This document shows, piece by piece, positions 12,068 through 64,000 of a stretch of DNA of 64,000 nt; the first letter of the stretch is position 1, and the number at the start of each line of letters is the position of its first letter. The DNA is taken from positions 768,001 through 832,000 of the forward strand of contig CAWEMM010000006.1 of the NCBI GenBank assembly GCA_963810095.1. Direction: 5' to 3'. Source of the stretch: an uncultured Chloroflexia bacterium (lineage in GTDB: Bacteria > Chloroflexota > Anaerolineae > CG2-30-64-16). A program made the translations under genes and the position numbers. The notes beneath the pieces are model-generated. The model was given only the letters and a program-made list of their open reading frames with translations, was not told the origin of the DNA and ran no database searches.

Positions 12068-14675
12068 ATGAATTTGAACCGGTATACCCAGCGCGCCCAA
12101 GAGGTCATCATGGCCTCGCAGGAGCTCGCGCAATCTAATAACCATTCCCAGATCGAACCGGAGCACCTGCTGCTGGCCCTCCTGCAGCAGGAAGACGGCG
12201 TCGCGGGCGAGATCTTGCGCCAGGTGGGCGCGGACCCGGCGACCGTCGCAGGACAGTTGGAGGGCGAACTGGCGCGCCGGCCGAAGGCGTACGGCTCGAA
12301 CGTGCAGCCCGGGCTGAGCGGCCAGGCTTCGCGCGTGCTGCAGGACGCGTACGCCGAAGCCAGCCAGATGAAAGACGACTACGTCAGCACCGAGCACATC
12401 CTGCTGGCGCTTGCAGGTTCGAACGGCGGCAACGTCGCCAAGCTGCTCGGCCGCCTGGGCATCACCCGCGACCGCATTCTCGCGGCGCTGACCGCGATTC
12501 GCGGCAACCAGCGGGTGACGAGCCAGAACCCGGAGGCGACGTACAAGGCGCTGGAGAAGTACGGCCGCGACCTGACCCAGGAGGCGCGGCAAGGGCAAGC
12601 TCGACCCGGTCATCGGCCGCGACGAGGAAATCCGCCGGACGATCCAGATCCTGAGCCGGCGCACGAAGAACAACCCCGTGCTCATCGGCGAGCCGGGCGT
12701 GGGCAAGACGGCCATCGTCGAAGGGCTGGCCCAGCGCATCGTGCGGGGTGACGTGCCGGAAGGGCTGAAGGATAAACGCGTCATTGCGCTTGACATGGGT
12801 GCGCTCGTGGCGGGTGCGAAGTACCGCGGCGAGTTCGAGGAGCGGCTCAAGGCCGTGCTGAAGGAAGTGACCGACAGCGCGGGGCAAACCATCCTGTTTA
12901 TCGACGAGCTCCACACGGTAGTCGGCGCGGGCGCGGCCGAGGGCGCGATGGACGCCAGCAACATGCTCAAGCCCATGCTGGCCCGCGGCGAGCTGCACGC
13001 GATCGGCGCGACGACGCTGGACGAGTACCGTAAGCACATCGAGAAGGACCCCGCGCTCGAGCGCCGCTTCCAGCCGGTGCTGGTTGAGGAACCCACCGTC
13101 GAGGATACGATTTCGATCCTGCGCGGGCTGAAGGAACGCTACGAGGTCCATCACAACGTGCGCATCACGGACGGCGCGGTGATCGCGGCCGCGACCCTGT
13201 CGCACCGCTACATCGCGGACCGCTTCTTGCCCGACAAGGCCATCGACCTGATCGACGAGGCCGCGAGCCGGCTGCGGATGGAGATCACGTCGGACCCGGC
13301 CGAGCTGGACGAGATCAAGCGCCGCGCAATGCAACTCGAGATCGAGCGCGAGGCGCTAAAGAAAGAATCGGACGCCGCGTCGAAGAGTCGACTGGAGACG
13401 ATCGAGCGCGAGTTGGCCGACCTGAACGAAGAGCGCAACACGCTCGACGCCCGGCTGAAGGGCGAGCGCGCGGTGATCGAACGGGTGGCGGCCCTCAAGC
13501 AGCAAATGGACGAGACCAAAACCGCAGTGGAGCAGGCGCAGCGGCAGGCGGATTACGGTAAGGCATCCGAGCTCCAGTACGGCAAGCTGGTCGAGCTGGA
13601 GCGGCAGAAGCAGGCCGTCGAAGCGGAACTGGCCCAGATGCAGGGCCGCGGCATGCTACTCAAGGAAGAGGTGGGCGCGGAAGAGGTGGCCGAGGTGGTA
13701 GCCACCTGGACGCACATTCCCGTGTCCAAGCTGCTGGAAGGCGAAATCGAAAAACTGATCAAGATGGAGGACCGGCTGCACGAGCGTGTGATCGGCCAGG
13801 AAGCGGCGCTGAAGGCCGTTGCTGCGGCGGTGCGCCGGGCGCGCGCCGGCCTGCAAGACCCGAACCGGCCCATCGGCTCGTTCATCTTCCTGGGCCCGAC
13901 GGGCGTCGGCAAGACCGAGCTCGCCCGTGCGCTGGCCGAGTTCCTGTTCGACGACGAGAGCGCGATGATCCGCATCGACATGTCGGAGTACCAGGAACGG
14001 CACACGGTCAGCCGGCTGATCGGCGCGCCGCCCGGCTACGTGGGCTACGACGAGGGCGGGCAGCTCACCGAGGCGGTCCGGCGCAAGCCATACAGCGTCG
14101 TGCTGTTCGATGAGATCGAGAAGGCGCACCGGGAGGTGTTCAACACACTGCTGCAGATGCTGGACGACGGCCGGCTGACGGACGGCCACGGCCGAACCGT
14201 AGACTTTACGAACACGGTCGTCATCATGACGTCGAACATCGGCAGCCAGTACATCAACGATCCGAAGCTGACCGACGAGCAGCGGCGGGACCGGGCGATG
14301 GACGCCCTGCGGCAGGCGTTCCCGCCCGAGTTCCTGAACCGGGTGGACGACATCATAGTGTTCCACAGCCTGTCACGCGCCGACCTGGCACAGATCATCC
14401 AGGTGCAGTTGAAGCGGCTGCGCAAGATTCTGGTGGGTCAGGGACTGAACCTGGAGCTGAGCGACGCGGCTGTAGTCTTCCTGGCCGAGAAGGGCTACGA
14501 CCCGACATACGGCGCACGCCCGCTCAAGCGGGCGATCCAGCAGTACGTGCAGGACCCGCTGGCGCTCGCGCTGCTGCAGGGGCAGTTCAAGCGGGGCGAC
14601 ACGATCTTTGCGGACGTGGAGAACGGGCAGATCATCTTCCTGAAGGAGATGGCGAGGGAAAGGGCGGTCGCGTAA
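12068..14675 (+). CDS. clpB: ATP-dependent chaperone ClpB (apparent +1 frameshift ~12593)
   Basis: Clp N-domain, [21 protein letters not shown], coiled-coil M-domain, [18 protein letters not shown]. Confidence 0.95.
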
Positions 14676-14684
14676 TGGGGCAAG

Positions 14685-14729
14685 GCGAGGAGGGACCTGG
14701 TATCCCGCGGGAACCAGGTCCCTCCTCGC
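14685..14729. terminator. Perfect 17-bp hairpin after clpB
   Basis: GCGAGGAGGGACCTGGT / ACCAGGTCCCTCCTCGC; no U-tract. Confidence 0.6.
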
Positions 14730-14879
14730 ATAGTTCCGCAGTTCAGGCCCAACTGCGGGCGTCTTTAACGGTGCCCGTACGATTCTTGAACGCTCCTGTC
14801 GTACAGTGGGGTTGCACCGAGCGGAAGGTGAGCAAGCGAACGACATGCCGCCCGGCGACTCTGCCGAGGAGTTGTCAAG

Positions 14880-15203
14880 ATGAAAAAGGCAAGCAGGCTG
14901 ATACTCTTGTGGGTGGTCGTGGCCGGCGTACTGGCGACATCGTTTGTGGCAGCGGGCGCCGCAGGCGGGGCCGGCGGCCAGTTCTTCTTCGACAGCGGCG
15001 CACACCGCCCGTTGTCAAAGACTACACACGCGACCACCGTGTTCTTCGGCGACAGTGGGGCCTACCGGCCGGTCACGGCGGGAACGCAGGCGGCCGCCGT
15101 GTTTTTCTCGGACAGCGGAGCGCACCGCCCCCTGCCCGGGGCTGCGAGAGCGCCGCTCGCCTTCTATAGCGACAGCGGCGCTTACCGCCTGCACCGTGGA
15201 TAG
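14880..15203 (+). CDS. Small secreted protein with four 20-aa repeats, core F-[FY]-x-D-S-G-A-[HY]-R-[PL]
   Basis: GAGGAG RBS; Sec-type signal MKKASRLILLWVVVAGVLATSFVAAGA; exact 60-nt periodicity with synonymous variation. Confidence 0.8.
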   Translation: MKKASRLILLWVVVAGVLATSFVAAGAAGGAGGQFFFDSGAHRPLSKTTHATTVFFGDSGAYRPVTAGTQAAAVFFSDSGAHRPLPGAARAPLAFYSDSGAYRLHRG

Positions 15204-15218
15204 ACGCCTTCGCCTCAG

Positions 15219-15256
15219 AAAAAAGGGCCTCACCCGCAAATTGGGTGAGGCCCTGT
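15219..15256. terminator. Probable bidirectional terminator
   Basis: AGGGCCTCACCC/GGGTGAGGCCCT stem; A-tract on left gives a U-tract for ilvE. Confidence 0.75.
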
Positions 15257-15286
15257 TGCTATCTGCGTGCCGGATAACAGATCGTG

Positions 15287-16363
15287 CTACGCCCGCGGCT
15301 CAACGCAGTACGTCCACCCGTACGGATCGGGCGCGCGGCCGTACTGGATATCGGTCAGCGCCCCGTACAAGTGCTTGGCCACCGGCCCGCTCTCGTTGTT
15401 GTTGATGATTACCGCATCCTTCTCGTCGCCCAGCTTGCCCACGGGTGCGATGACGGCTGCCGTGCCGATGCCGAACACCTCGGTGATGCGACCCCCGCGG
15501 ATGTCTCGCAGCACCTCGCTGATGTCCAGCTTCTCCTCGCTCACCGTGTAGCCCAGGTCGGGCGCAAGGCGCAGCACGGAGTCCCGCGTGATGCCGGGCA
15601 GGATGCTGCCCGAGAGCGCGGGCGTGGCGATGTGCTTGCCCTCGTAGACGAAGCCGATGTTCATCGCGCCGACCTCCTCCACGTAGCGGTGCTCCACCGC
15701 GTCGAGCCAGCATACCTGCTGGAACCCGAGCGCCCGCACCTGCTCCGCGACATAGAGGCTGGCCGCGTAGTTGCCGCCCGTCTTCGCTTCCCCCGTGCCG
15801 CCCAGCACGGCCCGCACCTTCTCGCGTGACACGTACACCGCCACCGGGTTAAAGCCCGTCGCGAAGTACGGCCCGGTGGGGCCGGCAATGACGAAGTGCA
15901 GATAGCTTTTGCTGGCGTGCACCCCGAGGCCGACGTCGTTGGCGATCATCGTCGGACGGATGTAGAGCGAGGACTCCGGTCCTGCGGGCACGGCTTCGTG
16001 CACCACGCTGACCAGTTCGGCGATGGCTTCCAAGTGGTCTTCCTCGTCGGTGACGGCCATCGCCATCCGCTGCGCCGAGCGATTGAAACGCGCGCAGTTC
16101 TCCCACGGCCGGAACAGGTTGATCTTGCCGTCAGGCCGCCGGTAGGCCTTAAGCCCCTCGAAGATCTCCTGGCCGTAGTGGAAGACCATCGCCGCGGGGT
16201 CCATCATAAACGGCTCGTACGGGCCGATTCGGGCGTCGTGCCAACCCCTCTCAGGGGTGTACTTCTGGCTGAACATGCGATCCGCGAAGTATTTGCCGAA
16301 CGGCAACTGCGCGGGGAACGGTTTCTGCTCGCCTGCTGCGAGCGCTTGAATCTGGATTTGCAC
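15287..16363 (-). CDS. ilvE: Branched-chain amino acid aminotransferase
   Basis: FHYGQEIFEGLKAYR, LYIRP, AKTGGNYAAS, EEVGAMN, ILPGITRDS, GTAAVIAP; GTG start with strong RBS. Confidence 0.93.
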   Translation of the reverse strand: MQIQIQALAAGEQKPFPAQLPFGKYFADRMFSQKYTPERGWHDARIGPYEPFMMDPAAMVFHYGQEIFEGLKAYRRPDGKINLFRPWENCARFNRSAQRMAMAVTDEEDHLEAIAELVSVVHEAVPAGPESSLYIRPTMIANDVGLGVHASKSYLHFVIAGPTGPYFATGFNPVAVYVSREKVRAVLGGTGEAKTGGNYAASLYVAEQVRALGFQQVCWLDAVEHRYVEEVGAMNIGFVYEGKHIATPALSGSILPGITRDSVLRLAPDLGYTVSEEKLDISEVLRDIRGGRITEVFGIGTAAVIAPVGKLGDEKDAVIINNNESGPVAKHLYGALTDIQYGRAPDPYGWTYCVEPRA

Positions 16364-16510
16364 GCTCTCCTCCCCCTTGATGGTGTGCGAGCATGGGAGC
16401 AACCGCTGCGCGCTTGCGCTCGCATATGTCGCAGGCGCATCATACACCGTCCGCGCCTCCGCAACAATTGCGGGCCGCACGACGTTGGAGTAGACGGCGC
16501 GCTGCCGGCC

Positions 16511-16560
16511 AGACCCCGAAGGTTGCGCCACCTGGATGGCGGCCGAAACCTTCGGGGTCT
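16511..16560. repeat. Palindromic repeat, AGACC-C--AGGTT family, copy 2
   Basis: Perfect 14-bp inverted repeat AGACCCCGAAGGTT / AACCTTCGGGGTCT. Confidence 0.7.
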
Positions 16561-16586
16561 CAGGATGCGCATGAGGAGGAAGCGGA

Positions 16587-17840
16587 GTGAAATTGACGAT
16601 AGCTACGGCAGGCTCGCGCGGCGACGTGCAGCCCTACGTCGCGCTTGGCTTGGGTCTGCAAGCCGCCGGACACGAAGTCAAGATCGCGGCGGACCACCAG
16701 TTCGAAGGCTTTGTGACAGGGCATGGGTTGTCGTTCGCGCCGCTTAGCACGGACAGCCGTTCCGCGTTCTCCGACTGCGTCGAACACCGTGACAATCCCG
16801 CGGGCATGCTGCGCTGGCTCAGGGCCCACTACACGCCCGACCGGACCTACTTCGAGGATCTGCTCGCCGCACTGCGCGGCAGCGACGGGGCCCTCGTCGC
16901 ATTTCTCGCGTTCCCCGCCGTCCACGTGGCCGAAGCACTCGGCATACCCTGGCTCGGCGCGTTCCTGCAGCCCTGGACCCCGTCGCGCTCGTTTAGCTGG
17001 GCCCTGCCCATGCAGCTTCCCGGCTGGATTCCCGAGCAGGTGCGTGGGGACATTCACTGGTGGAGCGGACGCTCGGCGAGCGCGCTAATGCTGCGAGCGA
17101 TGCGCGAAGCGGTGGACGAAGGACGGCGGGACGTGCTCGGCTTGCCGCCGACCCGGTTGGACGACTACGTGGCCTTCGGCTCCGACGACACGCCGGTCAT
17201 CTATGGCTACAGCCACCACCTGGTGCCCGAGCAGCCGGCGTGGACGCCGCGCCAGCGGGTAACCGGCTTCTGGTTTCTCGAGGACAACGGCTGGGAACCG
17301 CCGGCGCGGCTGGAGGGATTTCTCGCGGACGGTGAGCCGCCGGTGGTGATCGGCTTCGGCAGCATGGCCGACTGCAACGCCGAGCACACCCTCTCGATCG
17401 TGCTCGCCGCGCTCGACGGACTGGGGCTGCGCGGCATCCTGCTCGGTGGCTGGGCCGGGCTGGGTGAGGGTCAGAATCTGCCTTCTTCTGTTCTCGCGCT
17501 CGACGAAGCACCCCATGACTGGCTGCTGCCGCGGGTCGCGGCCATCGTGCATCACGGAGGCGCCGGTACGACCGCAGCCGCGCTGCGGGGCGGGATAGCC
17601 TCGGTGACCGTGCCCTATTTTGGGGACCAACCCTTTTGGGGGCGACAGGTGCACGCGCTCGGGGCCGCGGCCGCGCCGGTCAAGCGCAGCCGGCTGACAG
17701 CCGAGCGCCTCGTGCGGGCGCTGGGGGAAACGCTGGCGCCCGAAAAGCGCGCTTGCGCGGCCCGGGTCGGCGCTAAGATCAGGGCGGAAGACGGGGTGGG
17801 CCAGGCGGTAGAAGCGGTGGAGGAACTATTAGGATGGTAA
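16587..17840 (+). CDS. GT1 glycosyltransferase (sterol 3-beta-glucosyltransferase-like)
   Basis: GSRGDVQPYVALGLGL; PHDWLLPR..HHGGAGTT; PYFGDQPFWG. Confidence 0.9.
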   Translation: MKLTIATAGSRGDVQPYVALGLGLQAAGHEVKIAADHQFEGFVTGHGLSFAPLSTDSRSAFSDCVEHRDNPAGMLRWLRAHYTPDRTYFEDLLAALRGSDGALVAFLAFPAVHVAEALGIPWLGAFLQPWTPSRSFSWALPMQLPGWIPEQVRGDIHWWSGRSASALMLRAMREAVDEGRRDVLGLPPTRLDDYVAFGSDDTPVIYGYSHHLVPEQPAWTPRQRVTGFWFLEDNGWEPPARLEGFLADGEPPVVIGFGSMADCNAEHTLSIVLAALDGLGLRGILLGGWAGLGEGQNLPSSVLALDEAPHDWLLPRVAAIVHHGGAGTTAAALRGGIASVTVPYFGDQPFWGRQVHALGAAAAPVKRSRLTAERLVRALGETLAPEKRACAARVGAKIRAEDGVGQAVEAVEELLGW

Positions 17841-53350: not shown

Positions 53351-53581
53351 CTAATTCTCGGATTGATACCTGGGCTCGGTCGAGCCCGGCGCCCCGGCCC
53401 GCCTGATCCGCTTCCCGTTCGTCACGAACCACAGCTTCCGGTCGCCGTCCGTCCGCACCCAGATGGCGGGGTGCTGGTGACCGGCAACTTCGCCGCTGCG
53501 CCAAACCTCTGCCTCCTCGAGAGCCTGCAGGATTTCGACGTGCTCACCCACCGCGTACAGATCGACCAGCCGCTGCGGCAT
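53351..53581 (-). CDS. Small hypothetical protein (SH3/Tudor-like beta pattern)
   Basis: LYAVGEHVEI..WRSGEV.GHQHPAIWVRT..WFVTNGKRIR; translationally coupled to upstream gene. Confidence 0.6.
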   Translation of the reverse strand: MPQRLVDLYAVGEHVEILQALEEAEVWRSGEVAGHQHPAIWVRTDGDRKLWFVTNGKRIRRAGAPGSTEPRYQSEN

Positions 53582-54366
53582 CAGGCCGGCTCCGCGTAGA
53601 CGAGGGAGAGGCAGGTGACGCCCCCGTCGGCCTTGGTGAACTCGGTCACCGGCACGGGGAGCACCTCGAAGCCTTCGGCGCTCAGCAGAGCGATGGTCTT
53701 GTGGTAGCCCGCCGGCGCGACCACACAGTCGCCTAGGGCCAACACGTTGCACGCGTACGCCTCGTCGTCTGGCACGACGAGCACTTTCATGCCTTGGAAC
53801 TCGGGCCGCCCGGCCATCTCCTTCACGGCCAAAAGTGTTCCTCGACCGAGGTAGGTGACGCCGCTGAGCAGATGCAGCAGGCCGGACACCGGGATCTCGT
53901 CGACGGGCAAGGGCGCAAGCGCCGCTCGCAGCTGCGCAATGCCGGCGGCATTCGTCCGGTCTGAGAGGCCGGCGTAGACGTGATGGGGCAGCACAAGCAC
54001 GTCGCCGCCCTCGAGGGTGGCGGGCGCCTGCAGAGCAGTAGTGGTGGGAAAACGCCCGCGGAGGACCGGCTCGACCAGCGTCTCTTCGCCACGGCGGCTC
54101 AATGCGCCTGGCCGGGCGATGATCGCTTGGCCGGCAATGACAAGCGCCGGGTCCTGCATGAAGCAGCTGTCGGGGTACCGTTCGTCGGGCGCGAGCGCTT
54201 CGACCGTGATCCCCGCCTGCCCGAGCGCCCGGCAGTAGGCTGCGTGCTGTTCCTGCGCCAGCTTCACGTCGATGGCCGCGCCCGTGCTGCTGATCGCGGC
54301 GGCGAAGCTCTGCCCGGGCGCGCGGACGAGCGCGTGCAGGCGCTGGGCGCCGGCGGCCCCGCTCAA
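53581..54366 (-). CDS. Pentein-family amidinohydrolase (dimethylargininase-like)
   Basis: QHAAYCRAL, YPDSCFMQDPA, SRRGE, LEGGDV, RTN, LHLLSG, DGGVTCLS. Confidence 0.88.
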   Translation of the reverse strand: MSGAAGAQRLHALVRAPGQSFAAAISSTGAAIDVKLAQEQHAAYCRALGQAGITVEALAPDERYPDSCFMQDPALVIAGQAIIARPGALSRRGEETLVEPVLRGRFPTTTALQAPATLEGGDVLVLPHHVYAGLSDRTNAAGIAQLRAALAPLPVDEIPVSGLLHLLSGVTYLGRGTLLAVKEMAGRPEFQGMKVLVVPDDEAYACNVLALGDCVVAPAGYHKTIALLSAEGFEVLPVPVTEFTKADGGVTCLSLVYAEPA

Positions 54367-54997
54367 GGCAGCACCTCGCGCACCTTCGCGGCCACCGCGA
54401 CGGCGAGCTTTGGCAACTCCGAAGCGTCGAAATGGATGCCATCCCCGGCAGATGACACGATGTATTGGCCGGCGTCCAGGAACCCACACCCCGTCTCGTC
54501 CGACACCAGCCGGAAGTAATGGCCGAGGCGCTGCGACTTCGCGTCGGCCCCTTCGAACATGTCCGCGAAGGATGTGCCCACCACGCACGTCGGAGGCGGC
54601 GCAACCAGCAGGACTTCCGGTGGCTGGAGGTCGGGCCCCAGCGCGCTCGCCCGGATCATCTCGACCAGCGTCTGCGCGCCCCGCGCAATGTCCCACGCCG
54701 ACAAGCCCCAGCGATGCTTGAGGTCGTTCGTGCCCAACATGAGCACCACCACATCGACGGGATGGTGGGACTCGAGGATGGCGATCAACGTGCTTTTGCC
54801 GCTTTTGTACTCGCCCTCGATCGGATCCGACCATACGGTCGTGCGCCCGTTAAGACCTTCCGGAATGACGAGGTAATCCGCGCCCGAACTCGCGCGCCAG
54901 GAAGCTGGACCCAACGCTGCTCGTAGGGATAGCGCCCCTCGCTCAAGGGATCGTAACCCCACGTGTTCGAATCGCCGTAGCACAAGACCGTCTTCAT
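54363..54997 (-). CDS. SGNH/GDSL hydrolase (arylesterase type; apparent frameshift ~54900)
   Basis: LCYGDSNTWG, EGLNGRTT, MLGTNDLK, DGIH. Confidence 0.9.
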
Positions 54998-55072
54998 ACT
55001 GCCTCCTTTGACGAGGTGGAGATGGGGGAATTGTACGCGGGACCGAGCGAATGATCAAACGGGAATTGGGTA

Positions 55073-55126
55073 TTGACAAGAGGTATTACGTCGTGCTATG
55101 CTAACACGGCAGTCGTGATACCTCTT
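55073..55126 (+). promoter_or_regulatory. Promoter of GntR gene with inverted operator pair
   Basis: TTGACA..TATGCT; AAGAGGTATTACGTC (55078) and GTCGTGATACCTCTT (55112) form a 13/15 inverted repeat flanking the -10. Confidence 0.65.
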
Positions 55127-55152
55127 CTTCCAGTTTCCGCTCTGGAGCACTC

Positions 55153-55905
55153 ATGTTGGAGAACACGCTGGTCCGCACTGATTCTCTCAAGACCCAGCTC
55201 CAGCGCGTCCTTCGCGAGCGGATACTCTCCGGCCATTACGCCCCCGGTTCGCAGTTCCCTTCGGAGGCCGAGTTGGTGGACGAGTACGGCGTCTCCCGCA
55301 CCACCGTCCGCAGCGCCCTTGCTGCGCTCGAAGCCGAAGGGTTCATCCAGCGCCGGTGGGGGGTGGGCACGTTTGTTTCCCGCCAGCACCACATCTCACA
55401 CCAGATCGAAGAAGCCAACGACTTCAGCGTCCTCATCTCTGCCAGCGGCTACACGCCGGGCGTGCGGGTGCTCCGCGCAATTCCTGCGTTTGCAGGCAGC
55501 CTCGAGTGCGAGCGCCTGGACGTAGACGAGGGCAGCCCGCTCTTGCGCGTCGAGAAGGTGTTCACCGCGGACGGCGATCCGGTCATTTACGCCGTCAACT
55601 TCATTCCGCATCGTATCCTGAGAGATGGGCTGTTCACCGAGGTTCAGCGCCGGCCCGAGCTGACCGAACCCATCTACACGTTCCTCGAAGAAACCTGCGG
55701 CCAACGGGTTGACTACCACATTGCGACCCTCGCGGCCATCCTCGCCCGGGATTCTGAGATTACCATCCCGGACATCGATCCCGTCACACCGCTCTTGACA
55801 ATGAGCTCTATCGGCCACGACCGGGAGGGCCGGCCTGTATTCGAGTCCCGGTCCACCTATCCCGACCCGCGGCTTCAGATGAAGCTGCTGCGCCGGAGGT
55901 CATAG
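55153..55905 (+). CDS. GntR (HutC/UTRA) transcriptional regulator
   Basis: FPSEAELVDEYGVSRTTVRSAL..GVGTFV; UTRA-like C-terminus. Confidence 0.92.
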   Translation: MLENTLVRTDSLKTQLQRVLRERILSGHYAPGSQFPSEAELVDEYGVSRTTVRSALAALEAEGFIQRRWGVGTFVSRQHHISHQIEEANDFSVLISASGYTPGVRVLRAIPAFAGSLECERLDVDEGSPLLRVEKVFTADGDPVIYAVNFIPHRILRDGLFTEVQRRPELTEPIYTFLEETCGQRVDYHIATLAAILARDSEITIPDIDPVTPLLTMSSIGHDREGRPVFESRSTYPDPRLQMKLLRRRS

Positions 55906-55912
55906 GTTTTCC

Positions 55913-55992
55913 GCCACGAATTACACAAATTGAACGAATGGCACGAATTGCTTCCGATTCGTTGAATTCGCCACACTCATGTAATTCGTAGC
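55913..55992. repeat. 9-nt periodic palindromic element (ACGAAT family)
   Basis: ACGAAT-like at 55916/25/34/43; ATTCGT-like at 55957/66/75/84. Confidence 0.75.
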
Positions 55993-56010
55993 CGCCTCAT
56001 TGGAGGTTAT

Positions 56011-56868
56011 ATGGCTATCCCGATTATTGATGCTCTCACCCACATCAGCACCGGCCCCGACGACGTGATCGGCTGGGGGCCGTGCTGGACTGCGGAGGAC
56101 ATGCTCCGACTGATGGACACGCCGCGCAAGGTGTGCGGTGCGCCCGCCCGTGTAGATAAGGCGGTCGTCTTCCCGTCGCTCGGCCTCACCGTCCCCACCT
56201 CGACCCTCTCGTTCGAGGACCAGCACGCTTACGTCGTGGACAGCGTGGGGCGCTACCCCGACCGGCTGGTCGGCGGTATCGTCATGCACCCCCGGCTGTG
56301 GAATGACGACGTGGCCGCAACGGTGCGCCGGATGGTCGTCGAGCAGGGCTTCCGGATGCTCTACCTGAACCCCTCGCTCCACAAGTTCTGGCTGCCCATC
56401 AAGACCCCGTCGGAAGGCGCGGGCGCTCGGAAGCTTCTATACCCCATCTTCGAGGCGGCGCGCGAGCTGCACGTCCCCGTAATGATCCACTCGGGCGAGC
56501 AGCCCTATGCGCTCCCGGCGACCATCGACTTCGTAGCCGGTGCGTTCCCCGACGTCAGCATCATCATCGCCCATCTCGGCACGCAGGGCGAGCTCTACAC
56601 GATCGAAGCTCTGCTGGTGGCCGACCGGCACCCCAACGTCTACCTTGAGACCTCCTGGGCCATGCCCCACATGATCATCGAGGCCATCCATGAAGTGGGC
56701 GCGGACCGGCTCATCTTCGGCTCGAACACCCCGCCGCTCGAGATGACGCAGCAGATCATGAACGTGGACGAGGCGATGATGGACGCGCCCCCCATCGGCA
56801 TGGGCGCGAGCGAAGCCGACACGCGGGCGGTGCTGGGCGGAAACCTGGCCCGGCTGTTGGGGATTTAG
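56011..56868 (+). CDS. Amidohydrolase_2 family protein with degenerate metal ligands
   Basis: IIDALTH, MLYLNPSLH, IHSG, IAHLG, IFGSNTP. Confidence 0.85.
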   Translation: MAIPIIDALTHISTGPDDVIGWGPCWTAEDMLRLMDTPRKVCGAPARVDKAVVFPSLGLTVPTSTLSFEDQHAYVVDSVGRYPDRLVGGIVMHPRLWNDDVAATVRRMVVEQGFRMLYLNPSLHKFWLPIKTPSEGAGARKLLYPIFEAARELHVPVMIHSGEQPYALPATIDFVAGAFPDVSIIIAHLGTQGELYTIEALLVADRHPNVYLETSWAMPHMIIEAIHEVGADRLIFGSNTPPLEMTQQIMNVDEAMMDAPPIGMGASEADTRAVLGGNLARLLGI

Positions 56869-56877
56869 GAGTATCTC

Positions 56878-57753
56878 ATGGAATACCGAATCATCGATTC
56901 GCACGCACACATCATCCCCCAGCGCGAGCCGGTGTGGGGTTGGGGCCCGAACTTCACCGTCGATCGCCTCCTCGAAATGATGGACCGCGATTACGAAGTG
57001 CTCGGCGAGATCAAGCATGTGGAAAAAGCCGTCGTTATGACGGGCCTGGGGCTGACGTCGGTCGAGCACCGCTCGATGGAAGAAGCGCACAAGTATGCGT
57101 TGGCGTCGGTCAAGGCTAACAAGGACCGGCTGTATCTGAACCCGGTGATCAATCCTCGTGCCTACGTGCCCGACGAGCTTTACCAGATCCGCGACTGGAA
57201 AGACGAGTACAACGTCCGCATGCTCAAGCTCCATCCAAGCATGCACAACTATTACCTGCCCACCTACAGCCCCTTCCCCGCCGATGTCAGCAAGAAGATG
57301 ATCTACCCGGTCTTCGAGCTGGCGGCCGAACTGGGCATTCCCATCATGCTGCACCAGGGCGAGACGCCCTACTCCATGCCGTGCCAGATTGCGCCCGTCG
57401 CCGAGGCGTTCCCGCACGTCAACATCCTGGTGGCGCACTCCGGTGCAAACAACATCCCAGCCATGGCGAATGATGCGATCCTGCTGGCGCGCACGCACGA
57501 CAACATCTTCCTGGGCACGTCGTGGGTGCAGCCGCCCGAGCTGGTGCAGATGTACTACGCTGTCGGTGCCACCAAGATCGTCTGGGAGTCTGACTGCTCG
57601 CCCCAGTCCATGCCACAGAACCTGCGCATGCTGACCAACCTGGCTCTTCCCGCGCCGCTGGGCGTGGGCGCGAGCAGGGATGAAATCTACCGCATCGTCG
57701 GCAGCAACATCGCGGACCTCTGCAGCCTTCCGGCTTCCAACGGGGCCCTATGA
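56878..57753 (+). CDS. Amidohydrolase_2 family protein (intact motifs)
   Basis: IIDSHAH, MLKLHP, LHQG, VAHSG, WESD. Confidence 0.88.
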   Translation: MEYRIIDSHAHIIPQREPVWGWGPNFTVDRLLEMMDRDYEVLGEIKHVEKAVVMTGLGLTSVEHRSMEEAHKYALASVKANKDRLYLNPVINPRAYVPDELYQIRDWKDEYNVRMLKLHPSMHNYYLPTYSPFPADVSKKMIYPVFELAAELGIPIMLHQGETPYSMPCQIAPVAEAFPHVNILVAHSGANNIPAMANDAILLARTHDNIFLGTSWVQPPELVQMYYAVGATKIVWESDCSPQSMPQNLRMLTNLALPAPLGVGASRDEIYRIVGSNIADLCSLPASNGAL

Positions 57754-59198
57754 GACCGGAGCCCGACCTCCGCTCCTTCATCGACGACCTGGCCGCGAAC
57801 GCGCCGGCGCACCTGTTCGCGGTCGCCGGCGAAGTCCCGCTGGACTACACGTCGACCGCGCTGACGCTCGCGCTCGAAAAGCAGGGGCGTGCGCCGGCCG
57901 TCGTGCTGAACCGGCTGGTGGGACGGGAAGGGCGGCTGGTCGCGAACCTGTTCGGGTCACGAGAACTGATGGCCCGGGGCATCGATGCGACGCCCGGCAC
58001 GTTTCTGACGGTGCTGGGCGACGCGCTCGACCATCTCATACCGGCCGAAATCGTGCCGGACGGTGCACTTGCCGGCGCGCCAGCAGGCGCCAACGCCCCC
58101 GTCCACGAGGTTGTCTGGCAGGGCGCAGACGTGGACTTGCAGCGCCTGCCCATTCCCCGGCACTTTGAGCAAGACGCCGGCCCGTACATCACTGCCGGCA
58201 TGATCGCAGCGCGAGATCCGGACACGGGGGTGAACAACCTGGCGTATGTCCGTCTGCAGGTCCAGGGGCCCCGGCGGCTCGGCGCCAGCCTGCACTCGCG
58301 GCAGCACACGTGGGACTACCTGCGCCGGGCCGAGAAGCGCGGCCAGGACTTGCCCGTGGCCATCGTTATCGGCGCGCACCCGGCCGTCATGCTGGCCGGG
58401 GCAGCCAAGATGGGCATCGGCGAGGACGAATACGACCTCGCCGGCGCGCTGCTGGGGCAGCCGCTTCAGCTGGTGCGAGGGTGCACGGTGGATGTCATGG
58501 TGCCGGCCTCGGCCGAGATTGTCATCGAAGGCAAGCTGCTGGCCAACACGCACGAGACCGAAGGTCCGTTCGGCGAGTACACCGGCTACGTCACCGGCCG
58601 CTCGACCCACAACGTGATCGAGGTCACCGCGATTACCATGCGCCACGACGCCATCTTTGTAGATGTCATCCCGGGCAACTCGGCCGAGCACCTGATCCTT
58701 GGCCGGGCGGCCAAGGAAGCGTGGGTGCACAAGCGGATGGCCGAGGCCTTGCCCTTCTTCGTCGACTTTCACTACCCGTCGTCGGGCACGCACTTCCACT
58801 GCTTCGTCCGCATCGACAAAAGCGCAGAAGGCCAAGCCCAGCAGGCGGCGCAACTGATCGTCGGCCTCGACCACTATATCAAGTTGGTCATTGTCGTCGA
58901 CCGCGACGTCGATCCGGCGGACGAGGCTGCCGTGATGTGGGCCATGGCCACCCGTATGCAGGCCGATCGCGACGTGACGATCCTGGCGCACTGCATGTGC
59001 AACAAGCTGGACCCGTCGAGCGCGGACGGCGTCGGCGCAAAGCTTTTGATCGACGCCACACGCAAGCCCGGTTTTGAAGCCGAGCCCGTCCACCTGCCCG
59101 ACGACGCCCGCGTTCTTGCGGCGCAGTTGGTTGGGGGCGCACACGAAGACGTGGCCGCAAGCCCCAGCTTGCGCGTTGAGCCATCCTACGGGAAGTAA
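57750..59198 (+). CDS. UbiD family prFMN-dependent (de)carboxylase
   Basis: NLFGSR, DAGPYIT, AEIVIEG, EGPFGEYTGY, VVDRDVD, WAMATR, LDPS, KLLIDAT. Confidence 0.93.
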   Translation: MRPEPDLRSFIDDLAANAPAHLFAVAGEVPLDYTSTALTLALEKQGRAPAVVLNRLVGREGRLVANLFGSRELMARGIDATPGTFLTVLGDALDHLIPAEIVPDGALAGAPAGANAPVHEVVWQGADVDLQRLPIPRHFEQDAGPYITAGMIAARDPDTGVNNLAYVRLQVQGPRRLGASLHSRQHTWDYLRRAEKRGQDLPVAIVIGAHPAVMLAGAAKMGIGEDEYDLAGALLGQPLQLVRGCTVDVMVPASAEIVIEGKLLANTHETEGPFGEYTGYVTGRSTHNVIEVTAITMRHDAIFVDVIPGNSAEHLILGRAAKEAWVHKRMAEALPFFVDFHYPSSGTHFHCFVRIDKSAEGQAQQAAQLIVGLDHYIKLVIVVDRDVDPADEAAVMWAMATRMQADRDVTILAHCMCNKLDPSSADGVGAKLLIDATRKPGFEAEPVHLPDDARVLAAQLVGGAHEDVAASPSLRVEPSYGK

Positions 59199-59205
59199 CC
59201 GACCT

Positions 59206-60115
59206 ATGCACCGGTTCGACTACCATACTCCCGCCACCCTCAACGAAGCCGTCGCCCTGCTTGACAGTTTCGGCGAGGATGCGCGGATCCTGGCGGGCGG
59301 CACCGACCTCCTGACCGCGCTTAAAGAACGGTGGGAGACGCCGGCCCACGTGGTCGACCTGCGCCGGGTGCCCGGCCTGGACGAGATCACCTATCGATAG
59401 CGGGCGCGGGCTCACCATCGGTGCGCGGGTGACCGTGCGGGCCGTCGAGACGTCGCCGCTGGTCCGCCAACACTATCCCGCCTTGGCCTACGCCGCCTCC
59501 ACCCTCGCCTCCATCCAAATCCGCAACCTGGCGACGGTTGCCGGCAACATCTGCCGGGCATCGCCCTCGGCAGACACGCCTCCCGTCCTCCTGGCGCTCG
59601 CCGCGTCGGCGACCCTGTGCGGACCCAATGGGTCGCGCACGGTGACTTTGGATGACTTCTTCACCGGTCCGGGGCGCACAGTCCTCAGGCGCAACGAAGT
59701 GCTGACCACGATCCAACTCCCCCCGGCGCCGGCCCAGCCGAGCGCACGGCTGGGCGCGGCGTATATCAAGCACAGCCCGCGCCGGGCGATGGACCTCGCG
59801 ATGGTGGGGGTCGCAGCGGCCCTGACTGTCGAAAGCGGTTGGATGACTGGCGTGCGCGTCGCGCTTGGCGCGGTGGCCCCGACGCCTCGCCGCTCGCACG
59901 GGGCCGAAGCGGTCCTTCTCGGACGTCAGATCGATCCGGACCTGCTCGAGAAGGCGGGCGCAGCAGCGGCGGAGGAATGCACCCCGATCAGCGACGTGCG
60001 CGGCACGGCCGCCCACCGGCGTGAGATGGTTGCCGTGCTGACCCGCCGGGCGCTGGAGCAGGCCATCGCAGCCGCTCAGGGCCGCGAGGCCGGAGCAAGG
60101 GAGGTTCGCCAGTGA
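59206..60115 (+). CDS. Xanthine dehydrogenase family FAD-binding subunit (apparent frameshift ~59395)
   Basis: FDYHTPATL, LAGGTDL, QIRNLATVAGN, ASPSAD, PISDVRG. Confidence 0.92.
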
Positions 60116-60654
60116 AGCAACCCCTCCGCATGACCGTCAACGGCCGGCCGGTCGAACTGCTCGTCGAACCTTATCGCACGCTGCTGGACGTTCTGCGCGA
60201 CGATCTGGAACTGACCGGCGCCAAGAAAGGGTGCGACCGCGGCGACTGCGGCGCGTGCACGGTCCTGGTCGACGGCAAGCCCGTCACTTCGTGCATGATG
60301 CTCGCGGTCCAGGCCGACGGCTGCCGGATTACGACGATCGAGGGATTGCAGACGGATGGCCGGCTGCATCCGCTTCAGCAGGCGTTCGTGGACCACGGCG
60401 CGGTGCAGTGCGGCTTCTGCACCCCCGGCATGGTCCTCGCCGCCGTGGCGGTCCTGGAGGAAAACCCGTGCCCTACCGAGGCACAGGTGCGCGATGGGAT
60501 CGCGGGCAACCTCTGCCGCTGCACCGGGTACGCGAAGATCGTGGATGCCGTCCTCGCGGCGGCCAATGCCCCTGGGCAGCCTGAGCGGAGCGGAGCCCGA
60601 ACGGACGAAGCGGAGTCGAAGGACGCGGCCGGGGTGCAGGAGGCACGCCGATGA
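60112..60654 (+). CDS. Xanthine dehydrogenase family 2Fe-2S subunit
   Basis: GCDRGDCGAC, QCGFCTPG, GNLCRCTGY. Confidence 0.95.
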   Translation: MKQPLRMTVNGRPVELLVEPYRTLLDVLRDDLELTGAKKGCDRGDCGACTVLVDGKPVTSCMMLAVQADGCRITTIEGLQTDGRLHPLQQAFVDHGAVQCGFCTPGMVLAAVAVLEENPCPTEAQVRDGIAGNLCRCTGYAKIVDAVLAAANAPGQPERSGARTDEAESKDAAGVQEARR

Positions 60655-62949
60655 GCGCAGAGCCACTCGTCGTCGGCAAGCGTCTGCCGCGTGTCGATGC
60701 GCTTGACAAAGTGACCGGCGCGGCGAAATATACCGGCGACCACCACGTCCGCGGCATGCTGCACGCGGCCATGCTGCGCAGCCCGCACGCCCATGCCCGC
60801 ATCATCAGCATTGATACGTCGGGAGCCGAACACCTGCCGGGCGTCAAGTGCATCCTCACGTGCCTCAACGTGCCGCGGGTGCGCCACGCCGGCCAGCCCG
60901 AACCGCGCGCCGGCTCGCTCGTCAAGGATCAGTACATCCTCGACCGTACCGTGCGCTTCCACGGCGACGGCGTGGCCGCAGTGGCCGCCACGTCACCCGA
61001 GGCTGCCGAAGAAGCGCTGGCGCTCATCCAGGTTGAATATGAGCCGCTGCCCTCGGTATTCGATGCGTACGAAGCCATGCAAGACGGCGCGCCCCGGATT
61101 CACGACACCGACCGCAACCTGGTCATCCCGCCCGTCGTCATCGAGTGGGGCGAGATAGAGGAGGGGTTCGCGCAGGCCGATTATGTTTTTGAAGGCGTCT
61201 ACGGCACGTCCCGGCACGTGCCTGCGTTCATGGAGCCGTACATCTGCACCGTGATCCCCGATGCGGCCGGCCGCCTGACCGTCTACGCCTCGACCCAGGC
61301 GCCGTTCATGGTCCGCGGCACGCTGTCCGAGGTGCTTGGCATCCCCATGAGCAAGATTCGGGTGATCACCGAGCACATGGGCGGCGGTTTCGGGGCCAAG
61401 CAGGACCTGTACCAACACGAATACCTGGCCGCGCTGCTGGCTCTGCGGACAGGAGAACCGGTGCGCTTCGAGTTCTCCCGTGCCGAGACCTTCATCTCCG
61501 GCCGCTCCCGGCATCCCGTGACCGTGGAACTGAAGCAAGGCGTTACGAAGGACGGCATCCTGACCGCCCGCCAGGCCCGCTACATCGCAAACTCCGGCGC
61601 ATACGGCTCGCACGGACCCGGCATCACCTGGGTCGGCGCCGCGGCCCTCGGGTCGCTGCACCGCTGCGAGAACGTACACATCGAGGGGCTGTGCGTGTAC
61701 ACGAACGCACCCATTGCCGGCGCTTTCCGCGGCTACGGCGCGCCCCAGGCGTACTTCGCCCTCGAGACCCAGATGGACGAGATTGCCGAAGCGCTTGGCA
61801 TCGACCCGCTCGAGCTGCGCAAACGCAACGCCATCCGCCCCGGCGACATCGGACCCGCCGGCACAGCTTTCACGAACAACCAGCTGCCCCTGTGCCTCGA
61901 CCGTGGAGCCGACGAAGATCGGGTGGGAGAATCGCACGCGTCCGGCGCCCGGTGCGTCGGGGAAGTGCGTGCGCGGCATCGGGGTGGCCTGCCAGCTCCA
62001 CTCCGCGACCGCCTACCCGGAGACGCGCGAAATCGCCAATGCCGCGGTGGCAATCAACGAAGATGGCACCGTCCAACTGCGCATCGGCTCGGCCGACCTG
62101 GGCACGGGCGCCAAGACCGTCCTGGCGCAGATTTGTGCCGAAACCCTGGGCGTTTGCTACGAAGACATCTCCGTGCTGGCCGGCGACACCGACCTCGTCC
62201 CATACGACCTGGGCGCATACGCGTCGCGCACGACCTACATCGCGGGCGGCGCGGTGCAGCAGGCGTCTCGGGAAGCCAGGATGCGGCTGCTCGAGCTGGC
62301 CGCCGAGCGGCTGGGCGTGCCCGTCGAGGACCTGTCCGTACAGCAGGGCTTTATCCGGATCGCCGGCCGGCCCGAGGGGGCGATTGCGATCGCCCAGATC
62401 GTCGGCCCGGAACAAGGCGCGCCCGCACAAACCATCACCGGCCAGGCGCGCAACCAGCCGCTCAACGCGTACTCGTTTGCGGCACAGTTTGCCGAGGTCG
62501 AGGTAGACACCGAAACGGGCCAGGTGCGGGTGCTTCGCATGGTGGCGGTTCACGACATCGGCAAGGCGATCAACCCGGCCGCGGCCGAGGGCCAGGTGGA
62601 GGGCGGTCTGCACCAGGGCATCGGCTACGCGCTGCTGGAGGACATGGTCATCGACCCGCGGACGGGGCGCACGCTCAACCCCAACTTCGTCGACTACAAG
62701 CTGCTGACCTCGCTCGATATGCCCGAGCTGGAGGTCGACTTCGTCGAGTCTGGCCTTGGCGACGGGCCGTACGGCGCGAAGGGCGTGGCGGAAGACAGCC
62801 TCTGTCCGACAGCCCCGGCCATCACCAATGCCATTTTCAATGCCACCGGCGTCCGCATCAAGCAGCTGCCGGTCAACCCAGAGCAATTGCTCGCGGGCTT
62901 GAGAGAGACCTCAACACAAAGTCACAAAGACACGGGGTATTCGGCATAA
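60651..62949 (+). CDS. Xanthine dehydrogenase family molybdopterin-binding subunit (apparent frameshift ~61910)
   Basis: LRSPHAHARI, STQAP, GGGFGAK, AFRGYG, ASRTT, GAKGVAE. Confidence 0.93.
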
Positions 62950-62986
62950 CCGGCAAGCCCTTTGTGCCTTGGTGCCTTTGTGGTGA
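62911..62986. repeat. 8-nt periodic palindromic element (CACAAAG family), copy 2, overlapping the Mo-subunit stop
   Basis: ACACAAAG-TCACAAAG-ACAC ... CTTTGTGC-CTTGGTGC-CTTTGTGG. Confidence 0.72.
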
Positions 62987-63022
62987 ACTCTCTCCCGCAT
63001 TCACACATCTCAGGAGGAGCAC

Positions 63023-64000
63023 ATGTCTAGGAAGTTTCTGTTCACCGTCCTCATGGCCATCGTCGTGCTGACCATGATCGCCGGCTGCGCGGCGCCCGCC
63101 GCGCAACCCGCCCCCGCAGCCGCAACCCAAGCCCCAGCCGCTGCGGCTGAACCGACCAAGGCCCCCGCCCCCGCGGCGGCCGCATTCAAGATGGGCCTGC
63201 TGAGCCCCGGCAGCGTCAACGACCAGGGCTGGAACACGATGGCCTTCAATGCGCTGAAGCGGGTCGAGAAGGACCTGGGCGCCGAGGTCTCCTATGTCGA
63301 GCTAAAGCAGGACCCGGCTTCGTATGAGAAGGCCTTCCGTGACTTCGCCGCGCAGGGCTACCAACTGATCCTCGGCCACGGCAACGAGTTCGAGGACGCG
63401 GCGAAGGCGACCGCGAAGGACTATCCCAACGTGCAGTTCTTCATCTCGTCCAGCCGCCTTAAGGAGCCGACGGTTACCGGCCTGAACACCAACTCGGACG
63501 AGCCGCTCTACCTGATGGGCGTCATGGCCGCGAAGATGTGCAAGGCCGCCGGGTTCGTGGGCGGCATGGAAATCCCGCCCATCTCCGAAGCCATGATCGG
63601 CTTCGTGAATGGCGCGAAGAGCGTCGACCCCAACTTCAAGGTCTACACCACCTTCATCGGCAACTTCCAGGATGCTGCGGCAGCCAAGGAAGCGGCGCTT
63701 AGCATGATCGCCCAGGGCGCAGACTGCCTCGTTCCCGATGCGGATGCCGCAGGCCAGGGTGTGTTCCAGGCTGTCGTCGAGAAGAAGGACCAGGGCGCTA
63801 AGACCTTCGGCGTCTTCATGCCGGCCACCGAGGCCGCGCCCGGCCAGGTGCTCGCCAACTACGTGTCCGACTACGGCCAGGGTGTCGTCAACCTGGCAAA
63901 GCAGGTCAAGGAAGGCACGTTTAAGGGCGGCGAAAACCACACGTTCGGCGTTGCGATGCCCGACGTTATGAAGTTCGAGTACGACGCGACTTCGACGACC
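63023..64000 (+). CDS. BMP/PnrA family ABC substrate-binding lipoprotein (3'-truncated by window; absent from the ORF track)
   Basis: AGGAGG RBS, lipobox IAGC, PGSVNDQGWNT, ILGHGNEFED, GFVGGMEIP, MIAQGAD. Confidence 0.9.
   Translation, partial: MSRKFLFTVLMAIVVLTMIAGCAAPAAQPAPAAATQAPAAAAEPTKAPAPAAAAFKMGLLSPGSVNDQGWNTMAFNALKRVEKDLGAEVSYVELKQDPASYEKAFRDFAAQGYQLILGHGNEFEDAAKATAKDYPNVQFFISSSRLKEPTVTGLNTNSDEPLYLMGVMAAKMCKAAGFVGGMEIPPISEAMIGFVNGAKSVDPNFKVYTTFIGNFQDAAAAKEAALSMIAQGADCLVPDADAAGQGVFQAVVEKKDQGAKTFGVFMPATEAAPGQVLANYVSDYGQGVVNLAKQVKEGTFKGGENHTFGVAMPDVMKFEYDATSTT

Follow-up and report, generated by a model that had tools for sequence, protein, structure and literature searches.

A probable lumazine-type catabolic operon in a Chloroflexi genome

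The window analyzed here, a stretch of 64,000 nucleotides (C6:768001-832000) from the metagenome-assembled genome of an Anaerolineae-type member of the Chloroflexi (16 contigs, 6.13 Mb, completeness 88.5%), ends in an operon that runs on the plus strand from position 55153. The names carried by homologs place the organism in Chloroflexota/Anaerolineae. With moderate confidence, we read this stretch as a GntR-controlled operon, built like the LuDH-DHLI-XCDC pathway, by which a pteridine (lumazine or pterin) would be taken up and converted to a purine independently of O2. Open reading frames (ORFs), Pfam, and NCBIfam gave, in this order, a GntR/UTRA regulator, two amidohydrolases (AH1 and AH2), a UbiD protein, the FAD, 2Fe-2S (FeS), and molybdenum (Mo) subunits of a hydroxylase, and a Bmp lipoprotein; past the window end follow the remainder of the lipoprotein gene and the genes of two BPD_transp_2 permeases and of a double ABC ATPase, beyond which lies RadA. 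Most junctions within this unit of eleven genes are overlaps or gaps of a few bases, with 4-base overlaps at AH2/UbiD, FAD/FeS, and FeS/Mo and spacers of 7-9 bases at AH1/AH2 and UbiD/FAD. An earlier note on this DNA had listed the gene families inside the window and stressed their tight coupling, and all were found on the plus strand where it had placed them, as closely spaced as it described; the permeases and the ATPase are the ABC partners that it had suggested looking for downstream. However, it had overlooked two frameshifts, one in the FAD gene and one in the Mo gene.

The same note had called the operon unassigned, which it no longer is, because the nearest system, the LuDH-DHLI-XCDC pathway, was characterized in 2025: Doi, Maeda & Takaya 2025 described how lumazine is converted to xanthine in Cupriavidus sp. 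LA-1 by these three enzymes, via 7-hydroxylumazine, 6,7-dihydroxylumazine, and xanthine-8-carboxylate (PMC12391406). LuDH, a three-subunit Mo-containing lumazine dehydrogenase set apart from the COX, XDH, PAO, and IOR groups of the XOR family, hydroxylates lumazine at C7 and then at C6, taking the hydroxyl oxygen from water and using NAD+ as the electron acceptor (PMC12391406). DHLI is an alpha2beta2 Amidohydro_2 enzyme that isomerizes 6,7-dihydroxylumazine to xanthine-8-carboxylate; its beta subunit carries His6, His8, and Asp235, while alpha lacks the two His residues (PMC12391406). XCDC, a UbiD enzyme working with UbiX, then converts xanthine-8-carboxylate to xanthine (PMC12391406). Cluster I of LA-1 further encodes a CobW-like GTPase (LA1_0143), which always accompanies DHLI beta, as well as a pterin deaminase, permeases, and regulators (PMC12391406). 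The main text of that paper contains no occurrence of the word Chloroflexi, and our literature search returned no other paper on the enzymes of the pathway and none tying it to this phylum.

A tblastn search of a plasmid and chromid collection gave 108 records for AH2 and 448 for UbiD, and the best-listed matches of both were adjacent genes on shared replicons of Cupriavidus, Burkholderia/Caballeronia, Paracoccus, Ensifer, and Shinella, which are the taxa named for the pathway (PMC12391406). Annotated proteobacterial examples comprise two amidohydrolases, UbiD, UbiX, a GTP-binding protein, and a nucleobase permease. At a C. campinensis locus (L149), the order is alpha, beta, UbiD, permease, FAD, FeS, Mo, UbiX, CobW, which mirrors LA-1 genes 0152 to 0143 as described (PMC12391406). 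Identity to the proteins of this locus, which was taken to represent LA-1 because of its gene order, a choice that lessens the weight of the comparison, is 59% for the N-terminal and 49% for the C-terminal half of the Mo subunit, 57% for FeS, 48-50% for FAD, 41% for UbiD, 31% for AH1, and 25-28% for AH2. In the reverse search of the L149 proteins against the whole Chloroflexi genome, the operon gave the best match for the amidohydrolases, UbiD, and FAD. For Mo, the best single match was a paralog on contig C12 (509 bits), and the operon came first only when its frame-split pieces were summed (489 + 313 = 802 bits); for FeS, the top operon match runs back into the FAD gene, the query frame having included upstream sequence.

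The likeness to LA-1 cluster I thus lies in a three-subunit Mo hydroxylase encoded in the order FAD, FeS, Mo, in a UbiD of the same clade, in O2-independent steps, in a dedicated importer and a regulator, and in two adjoining Amidohydro_2 paralogs directly upstream of UbiD, one bearing the HxH and Asp residues and the other degenerate. The differences concern the amidohydrolase pair, which forms a separate family with 25-33% identity to DHLI-type proteins; the importer, which is of the BMP-type ABC class instead of the NCS2 permeases of the Cupriavidus cluster; the regulator, which is of the GntR/UTRA type compared to the LysR-type gene at the proteobacterial loci L149-L151; the lack of ubiX, a CobW-type GTPase, and a pterin deaminase in the operon; and the host, which belongs to the phylum Chloroflexota.

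Two kinds of related clusters were found in other Chloroflexi. Clusters of type A (G022, G106, G305, the metagenome loci L084 and L073, and G522) have one Amidohydro_2 gene, the product of which is 58-78% identical to Cupriavidus DHLI beta. They share with the operon the GntR/UTRA regulator, a UbiD of the same clade (47-50% identity), a LuDH-group hydroxylase, and a BMP ABC importer, but their single DHLI-beta gene has no alpha-like partner, whereas the operon has the AH1/AH2 pair. Clusters of type B, which are defined by this pair, occur in 5 of the 37 genomes of the order, namely, the genome studied here, G007 of the same genus, G790, G021, and G011.

The Mo hydroxylase and UbiD group with enzymes of the lumazine pathway

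Among the subunits of the hydroxylase, the FeS protein (60112..60654, plus strand) is recognized by Fer2_2 (2.3e-34) and Fer2 (6.3e-08), whereas the genes for the FAD subunit (59206..60115, plus strand; FAD_binding_5 over two frames, CO_deh_flav_C next) and the Mo subunit (60651..62949, plus strand; Ald_Xan_dh_C and MoCoBD_1 in one frame, MoCoBD_2 in the next) are broken in frame, as detailed below. A tree of the N-terminal halves of Mo subunits (27 rows, limited to stop-free matches over 330 or more of the 420 residues, which removed the frameshifted copies of G790 and G011) united the operon with G007, G022, G106, G305, and L149 in a clade with a support of 99, apart from 5 paralogs of the same genome. 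The N-terminal half is, moreover, 60-69% identical to the subunits of the Chloroflexi DHLI-beta clusters. By these sequence criteria, the Mo subunit falls into the LuDH group. All NCBIfam equivalogs for XdhA/XdhB/XdhC and PucC/D/E scored below their cut-offs (XdhA, 387-391 vs 780-916; XdhC, 196.9 vs 217), the scores of the large and FAD subunits being underestimates, because the frame breaks left these to be scored as fragments.

The UbiD-family decarboxylase, of the prenylated flavin mononucleotide (prFMN) type (57750..59198, plus strand), matches PF01977 (3.8e-67), UbiD_C (2.2e-28), and UbiD_N (9.5e-08), so that all three domains (PF01977, PF20695, PF20696) are present, and scores 315.8 bits with TIGR00148, above the cut-off of 244.85. 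It is 39-42% identical to proteobacterial UbiDs encoded beside DHLI alpha and beta. UbiD trees were built from 90 of 130 matching loci, selected for matches of 380 residues or more that contain no stop. A clade of 32 rows (support 100; 100/99 in the second tree) unites the group of this operon with several Chloroflexi groups and with the DHLI-linked UbiDs of Proteobacteria, and in at least 4 of its subclades, UbiD has DHLI beta as a neighbor. Comparing proteobacterial, type A, and type B sequences column by column, we found 63 columns invariant in all three groups, 0 in which the proteobacterial and type A sequences agree and differ from type B, and 10 in which types A and B agree and differ from the Proteobacteria; no position separates the type B UbiDs from those beside true DHLI beta. 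Membership of this clade is no proof of substrate, because it also has members in other gene contexts. We propose, from its placement in the clade that contains XCDC, that this UbiD is a decarboxylase of xanthine-8-carboxylate or an analog. A scan of genome contigs with UbiD gave 39 loci, among which G007 holds the sole close relative, the others being 30-39% identical and serving as outgroups only. The only UbiX match in the genome (C6:1522260-1522805, 240 bits) is located approximately 690 kb from the operon, which bears out the observation in the earlier note that the window contains no ubiX.

That note had also regarded clustering with a fully characterized pathway as a reason to abandon its proposal. 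Such clustering applies to the Mo enzyme and to the UbiD clade, but not to the amidohydrolase pair.

A paired amidohydrolase beside the DHLI clade

AH1 (56011..56868, plus strand; Amidohydro_2, 2.6e-31) and AH2 (56878..57753, plus strand; Amidohydro_2, 1.7e-26) are 36.7% identical to each other. Their metagenome families are well populated, with 222 AH1 and 110 AH2 clusters at 90% identity, and 38 members were picked from each set of hits for an analysis of conserved residues. In the AH2 family, H9, H11, H159, H187, and D239 are invariant. In the AH1 family, position 9 has Leu as its consensus and is not a conserved column, H11 is nearly invariant, and an invariant N239 stands where AH2 has Asp. 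From this residue pattern, we propose that AH2 catalyzes the contraction of the pteridine ring, or a related reaction, with AH1 as its non-catalytic partner. The order of degenerate amidohydrolase, catalytic amidohydrolase, and UbiD is that of alpha, beta, and UbiD in Proteobacteria. A natural fusion of a ligand-complete with a degenerate domain (P0355), which belongs to one of the uncharacterized families listed in the AH2 search described below, gives a weak hint that such catalytic/degenerate pairs work together.

The amidohydrolases also furnish several of the points that weigh against the reading of the operon as a counterpart of the LA-1 system. AH1 and AH2 are only 31-33% and 25-28% identical, respectively, to the DHLI-type proteins of Cupriavidus, Caballeronia, and Paracoccus, and in an amidohydrolase tree (30 rows), they form families of their own (84/84) beside the DHLI clade (97/93). 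When AH2 was compared exhaustively with 1.84 billion representatives, 13 matches at E<=1e-30 and 75 at E<=1e-10 were obtained, and the DHLI-beta representative was 23rd among the matches listed (E 4.1e-20), behind several uncharacterized families; these families are about equally near to AH1/AH2 and to DHLI, judging from the 29 of 150 listed matches that were compared with references. Furthermore, true DHLI-beta orthologs, with the 58-78% identity given above, do occur in other Chloroflexi, and the G011 cluster holds DHLI beta, AH1, and AH2 together. On the sequence evidence, AH1 and AH2 are thus not DHLI orthologs. Outside the amidohydrolases, neither a deaminase nor ubiX is found in the operon, and no cobW domain either, the two weak matches in the whole genome (70.6 and 22.6 bits) lying on other contigs, and the substrate-binding protein (SBP) shares no more than 28-33% identity with its BMP counterparts in the true-DHLI-beta clusters. 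CobW is absent from the four annotated Chloroflexi DHLI-beta clusters as well.

Set beside these points, the DHLI clade and AH1/AH2 together form a group (96/95) that excludes three further Amidohydro_2 proteins from the genome studied here. The proteobacterial alpha/beta split falls inside the DHLI clade, and therefore the split into catalytic and degenerate subunits arose independently in AH1/AH2. A true DHLI-beta ortholog was not found in the genome studied here, and 4 of the 5 genomes with the pair (completeness 77-98%) have no canonical DHLI beta, which leaves AH1/AH2 as their only DHLI-like candidate; in G011, the presence of DHLI beta, AH1, and AH2 in one cluster speaks against simple redundancy between the pair and DHLI.

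Outside the order, no close AH2 homolog was found among 401 genomes sampled across the phylum, of which 3 matched at E<=1e-20, including the one studied here, the other two with 31-34% identity. A metagenome scan returned mostly relatives with 44-59% identity, with the AH1/AH2 type present only in the short locus L082. AH2 has no PDB sequence match at E<=0.001, and searches of the PDB with AH1, AH2, and Cupriavidus DHLI beta gave weak matches only, to uncharacterized or LigW-type entries, and no solved DHLI. AH1/AH2 is therefore a defined and testable enzyme target, being well populated, related to DHLI, and built on the same, independently arisen pairing; it is an uncharacterized family and close kin of the only known pteridine ring-contracting isomerase.

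Proposed pathway

In the pathway that we propose, a pteridine would be imported by the BMP-type ABC system, and the three-subunit Mo hydroxylase, to judge from the orthology of its Mo subunit, would hydroxylate the pyrazine ring with water at C7 and then at C6. AH2, with a predicted metal site of four His and one Asp, and the degenerate AH1 would then open the 7-oxo amide and close the ring again as an imidazole, so that xanthine-8-carboxylate or a close analog is formed; this is the weakest step, suggested by distant homology and the same gene order. UbiD, by virtue of its clade, would finally strip the carboxyl group to yield xanthine, its prFMN presumably being supplied by the single, distantly encoded UbiX.

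Several elements of the earlier note survive in this scheme. Its proposal of an N-heterocycle catabolic operon is supported, as is action on a fused heterocycle that contains a pyrimidine; among the three candidates that it gave, the substrate class with the best support is now pterin/lumazine. The O2-independent chemistry that it envisaged agrees with the use of water oxygen and NAD+ in the characterized system (PMC12391406). In contrast, its order of ring hydrolysis, decarboxylation, and hydroxylation does not hold in the characterized relative, in which the two pyrazine hydroxylations come first; its amidohydrolases were taken to be hydrolases, while the characterized Amidohydro_2 relative is a ring-contracting isomerase; and its clostridial analogy had xanthine being consumed, whereas decarboxylation in the characterized relative yields xanthine.

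A purine product would fit the surroundings. In G021, the AH1-AH2-UbiD trio adjoins a YgeY-family hydrolase (350.9 bits, cut-off 321), an OTCase-like protein, and a TRZ/ATZ-type aminohydrolase, a gene set linked to anaerobic purine breakdown, and the genome studied here has four YgeY-family hydrolases over the cut-off near further XDH-type clusters (C6:1253443-1272903, C9:337337-345153). YgeW-like carbamoyltransferases scoring under the cut-off lie near the same clusters. The host genome, rich in purine-catabolic genes of the anaerobic type, looks specialized for N-heterocycle catabolism. Pterins and lumazines are widespread as breakdown products of cofactors and as pigments. How microbes process them was first explained in 2025, for aerobic Proteobacteria from soil, and the operon and its relatives would extend the pathway to uncultured sediment Chloroflexi and to a BMP-type ABC importer.

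Alternative substrates and pathways

Possible, though on balance rather unlikely, is that the same enzyme logic serves another substrate, with AH1/AH2 and UbiD acting on a different hydroxylated fused N-heterocycle. Candidates are undeaminated 2-amino pterins (6,7-dihydroxypterin to guanine-8-carboxylate to guanine), 6-substituted pteridines derived from folate or biopterin, and another pyrazine-fused ring. Room for a different pteridine is left by the separateness of the AH1/AH2 families and their low identity to DHLI, their co-occurrence with true DHLI beta in G011, the missing CobW, ubiX, and deaminase, and the divergent SBP. In LA-1, LuDH oxidizes pterins as well as lumazines, while DHLI has no action on 6,7-dihydroxypterin (PMC12391406). 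The AH1/AH2 operons of the genome studied here, G007, and G790 have no deaminase, whereas some DHLI-beta clusters carry one (of the 8-oxoguanine-deaminase family in L084, 598 bits; CDA-like in G305); this pattern is weak, because the DHLI-beta clusters of G022 and G106 lack a deaminase too. On the other hand, UbiD shows no group-specific departure from the UbiDs beside true DHLI beta, and the Mo subunit is close to those of the DHLI-beta clusters.

Within this alternative, we entertain tentatively, as a possibility that we would not bet on, that AH1/AH2 represents a second two-subunit enzyme for pteridine rearrangement, evolved independently and acting on a substrate unlike that of DHLI, most likely one of the 2-amino series or a 6-substituted pteridine. 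If true, a distinct substrate would let anaerobe-type Chloroflexi use pterins without a deaminase, and it would explain why G011 keeps DHLI beta and AH1/AH2 in one cluster.

It is very unlikely that the operon serves a purine fermentation of the clostridial type, in which opening of xanthine at its pyrimidine ring and loss of the ureido group would fall to the amidohydrolases, UbiD would decarboxylate 4-amino-5-imidazolecarboxylate, and the Mo enzyme would interconvert purines. BMP proteins are known binders of purines and nucleosides, the solved chains closest to the one encoded here include purine-type binders, and the G021 neighborhood, the four YgeY-family hydrolases, and the several XDH-type clusters of the genome would all suit such a route. 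Yet the Mo subunit groups with the LuDH type, which in LA-1 does not oxidize xanthine (<0.1 U/mg; PMC12391406), and not with the XDH paralogs of its own genome; the only characterized member of the UbiD clade makes xanthine instead of consuming a product of it; the closest characterized relative of the amidohydrolases is an isomerase acting on a pyrazine ring; and none of the 10 papers listed by the literature search ties UbiD to aminoimidazole carboxylate.

Highly improbable, finally, is an Hmf-type pathway for furans or heteroaromatic dicarboxylates, or else a lumichrome/riboflavin route. The former is suggested by the closest PDB entry to UbiD, 6h6v (294 bits, residues 49-451; also 6h6x), which we take to be an HmfF-type 2,5-furandicarboxylate decarboxylase, the PDB titles of both entries reading only 'polyprenyl-hydroxybenzoate decarboxylase and related'. 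Likewise, JGI names many UbiD homologs (P0012, P0013, P0021, and others) '2,5-furandicarboxylate decarboxylase 1'. This structural likeness does not discriminate, because the DHLI-linked UbiD of the Cupriavidus type matches the same entries (233 bits); moreover, the eleven genes include no CoA ligase or hydratase, so that, in contrast to HmfF-type UbiDs, no furoyl-CoA pathway genes accompany it, and given the gene context of these UbiDs, the labels are probably mis-transferred and wrong. XCDC itself is inactive on furoate and furandicarboxylate (PMC12391406). As for lumichrome, its degradation likewise involves ring hydrolases, decarboxylation of a heterocycle, and xanthine-oxidase-type hydroxylation of a pyrazine-type ring, but in the main text of the paper that characterized this route in 2025, decarboxylation is assigned to a split thiamine diphosphate (ThDP) enzyme, LumK/LumL, a P450 and a Rieske dioxygenase take part, and UbiD is mentioned 0 times (PMC12746152). 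The operon has UbiD in place of the ThDP decarboxylase and contains neither the latter nor a P450 or a Rieske oxygenase.

Frame breaks in the FAD and Mo genes

In the assembled sequence, the first approximately 60 profile positions of the FAD subunit lie in the frame of the ORF 59074-59400 and positions 73-169 in that of the ORF 59429-60115. The Mo ORF of 806 aa (60651-63071) fits Mo-subunit models to residue approximately 420 only, MoCoBD_2 being encoded in another frame (61714-62949, E 1.2e-79), and its tail (62950-63071), which matches nothing, is an artifact. This bears on the motifs that the earlier note had used to set the Mo subunit apart from CoxL: AFRGYG in the N-terminal part and GAKGVAE in the C-terminal part are both present, and the CoxL-type CSFR motif was found in neither frame piece, but, owing to the frame break, the two motifs do not stand in one frame as that note had implied.

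Compared to the collinear, intact operon of G007, the sequence has one extra base near 59395 and another near 61909. Of four short-read runs compared, two, from freshwater sediment, each provided one near-identical Logan contig of low depth: that of run X1 (depth 2.1) has one letter fewer at 59393, and that of run X2 (depth 2.8) has one letter fewer at 61909, with the reservation that these runs may derive from the source sample. X3 and X4 had no useful cover of the frameshift sites. The two sites are the sole indels listed over 3401 bases of short-read comparison, and their positions coincide exactly with those predicted from G007. Two essential genes that lie 8-10 kb downstream, purA and purB (L009:8427-11315, window-equivalent approximately 71427-74315), are likewise broken, purA once near residue 385 and purB twice within approximately 100 nt, which points to frequent single-base indel errors in this assembly.

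From the short-read contigs without the extra bases, the intact genes of G007, and the broken purA and purB, we conclude that both breaks in the operon are assembly errors and that the hydroxylase, as far as can be read from sequence, is intact. A truly pseudogenized Mo hydroxylase in a decaying operon, with two real frameshifts, is scarcely credible: the assembled sequence does contain two +1 breaks, neither of them within a long homopolymer, but the short reads, G007, and the essential genes contradict it, as does a genome 88.5% complete in only 16 contigs. For annotation, this means that frame breaks of this assembly should not be taken for pseudogenes.

Transporter, regulator, and candidate operators

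The BMP/PnrA lipoprotein gene (63023..64000 and on to window-equivalent 64090, plus strand; Bmp, 8.8e-53) encodes 355 aa with a lipobox (IAGC) in the translation, and the permease and ATPase genes that complete the importer extend to window-equivalent approximately 67772 (L009 1180-4772), outside the window. Proteins of the BMP family are known to bind nucleosides, purines, and riboflavin. The single NCBIfam match of the lipoprotein was 'putative B6 ABC transporter SBP' (92 bits, far under the equivalog cut-off of 400), and the solved chains nearest to it were 3s99, 7x0r 'Lbp', and 6pi5 'atrazine periplasmic binding protein'. A literature search on the identity of 7x0r 'Lbp' found 0 papers; an Lbp whose structure was solved with PnrA as the search model is mentioned in work on C. 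thermocellum, and no ligand was deduced from it.

The regulator, of the HutC/UTRA type of the GntR family (55153..55905, plus strand; GntR, 6.5e-22; UTRA, 1.1e-17), is kept in G007 (79%) and G790 (62%), and all NCBIfam equivalogs remained under their cut-offs. Upstream of its gene, at 55073..55126 on the plus strand, a promoter-like TTGACA...TATGCT is overlapped by a 13-nt inverted repeat, AAGAGGTATTACG / CGTGATACCTCTT (92% complementary), which is a candidate operator. A second candidate operator is formed by the repeats in the spacer between gntR and AH1 (55917..55995, plus strand), comprising a 12-nt inverted repeat at 55928-55968 and approximately five ACGAA(T)/(A)TTCGT words. The corresponding spacer of G007 has CACGAAG/CTTCGTG words and is otherwise not alignable with it. 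Rfam gave 0 matches over 54500-64000 (E<=1), and hence no riboswitch.

Neighboring gene and variants of the related clusters

Divergent from the regulator gene, the minus strand encodes a member of the DDAH/arginine-deiminase superfamily with an N-terminal extension (53581-54834), which scores 189 bits with a dimethylargininase model (cut-off 450) and is overlapped by a second ORF of 417 aa in another frame. As a candidate part of the operon, it was rejected: it is kept only in the same-genus G007 (57%) and was not found at the G790, G021, and G011 loci, and because of this limited conservation, we regard it as a neighbor.

Among the related clusters, several variants were observed. In G021 (L021, G021:C77, 681-12074), a tungsten-type aldehyde:ferredoxin oxidoreductase (AFOR) follows AH1-AH2-UbiD in place of the Mo hydroxylase, and after it come the OTCase-like protein, a 2-hydroxyacid dehydrogenase, a PuuR-like regulator, the TRZ/ATZ-type aminohydrolase, and the YgeY-family hydrolase. 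G038 (L023) likewise has AFOR, UbiD, and a BMP ABC system, and AFOR may substitute for the Mo hydroxylase in both genomes. In G011, one cluster (L024 and L165, on G011:C409 and C408) encodes GntR, DHLI beta, AH1, AH2, UbiD, and FAD/FeS/Mo, with a DHLI beta that is 89% identical to that of G022 and 67% to that of Cupriavidus; both contigs contain numerous frame breaks and may represent a single locus rendered twice.

At two further loci (L067, G305:C2, 11025-14179; L069, 4658-6388), UbiDs of the same clade adjoin a split ThDP enzyme and a CDA-like deaminase. The ThDP parts, consisting of TPP_enzyme_N and TPP_enzyme_C or of TPP_enzyme_C alone, recall LumK/LumL of the lumichrome pathway. In the DHLI-beta cluster of L084, three genes (13497-17075) are inserted between FAD and FeS/Mo; they encode the 8-oxoguanine-deaminase-family protein mentioned above (cut-off 532), a B12-binding corrinoid protein, and an MtmB-like methyltransferase, an insert that hints at the demethylation of a methylated heterocycle. 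The operon of G790 (L164, G790:C36, 12354-14185) ends with two tandem BMP genes, 79-81% identical to the one described here, instead of one.

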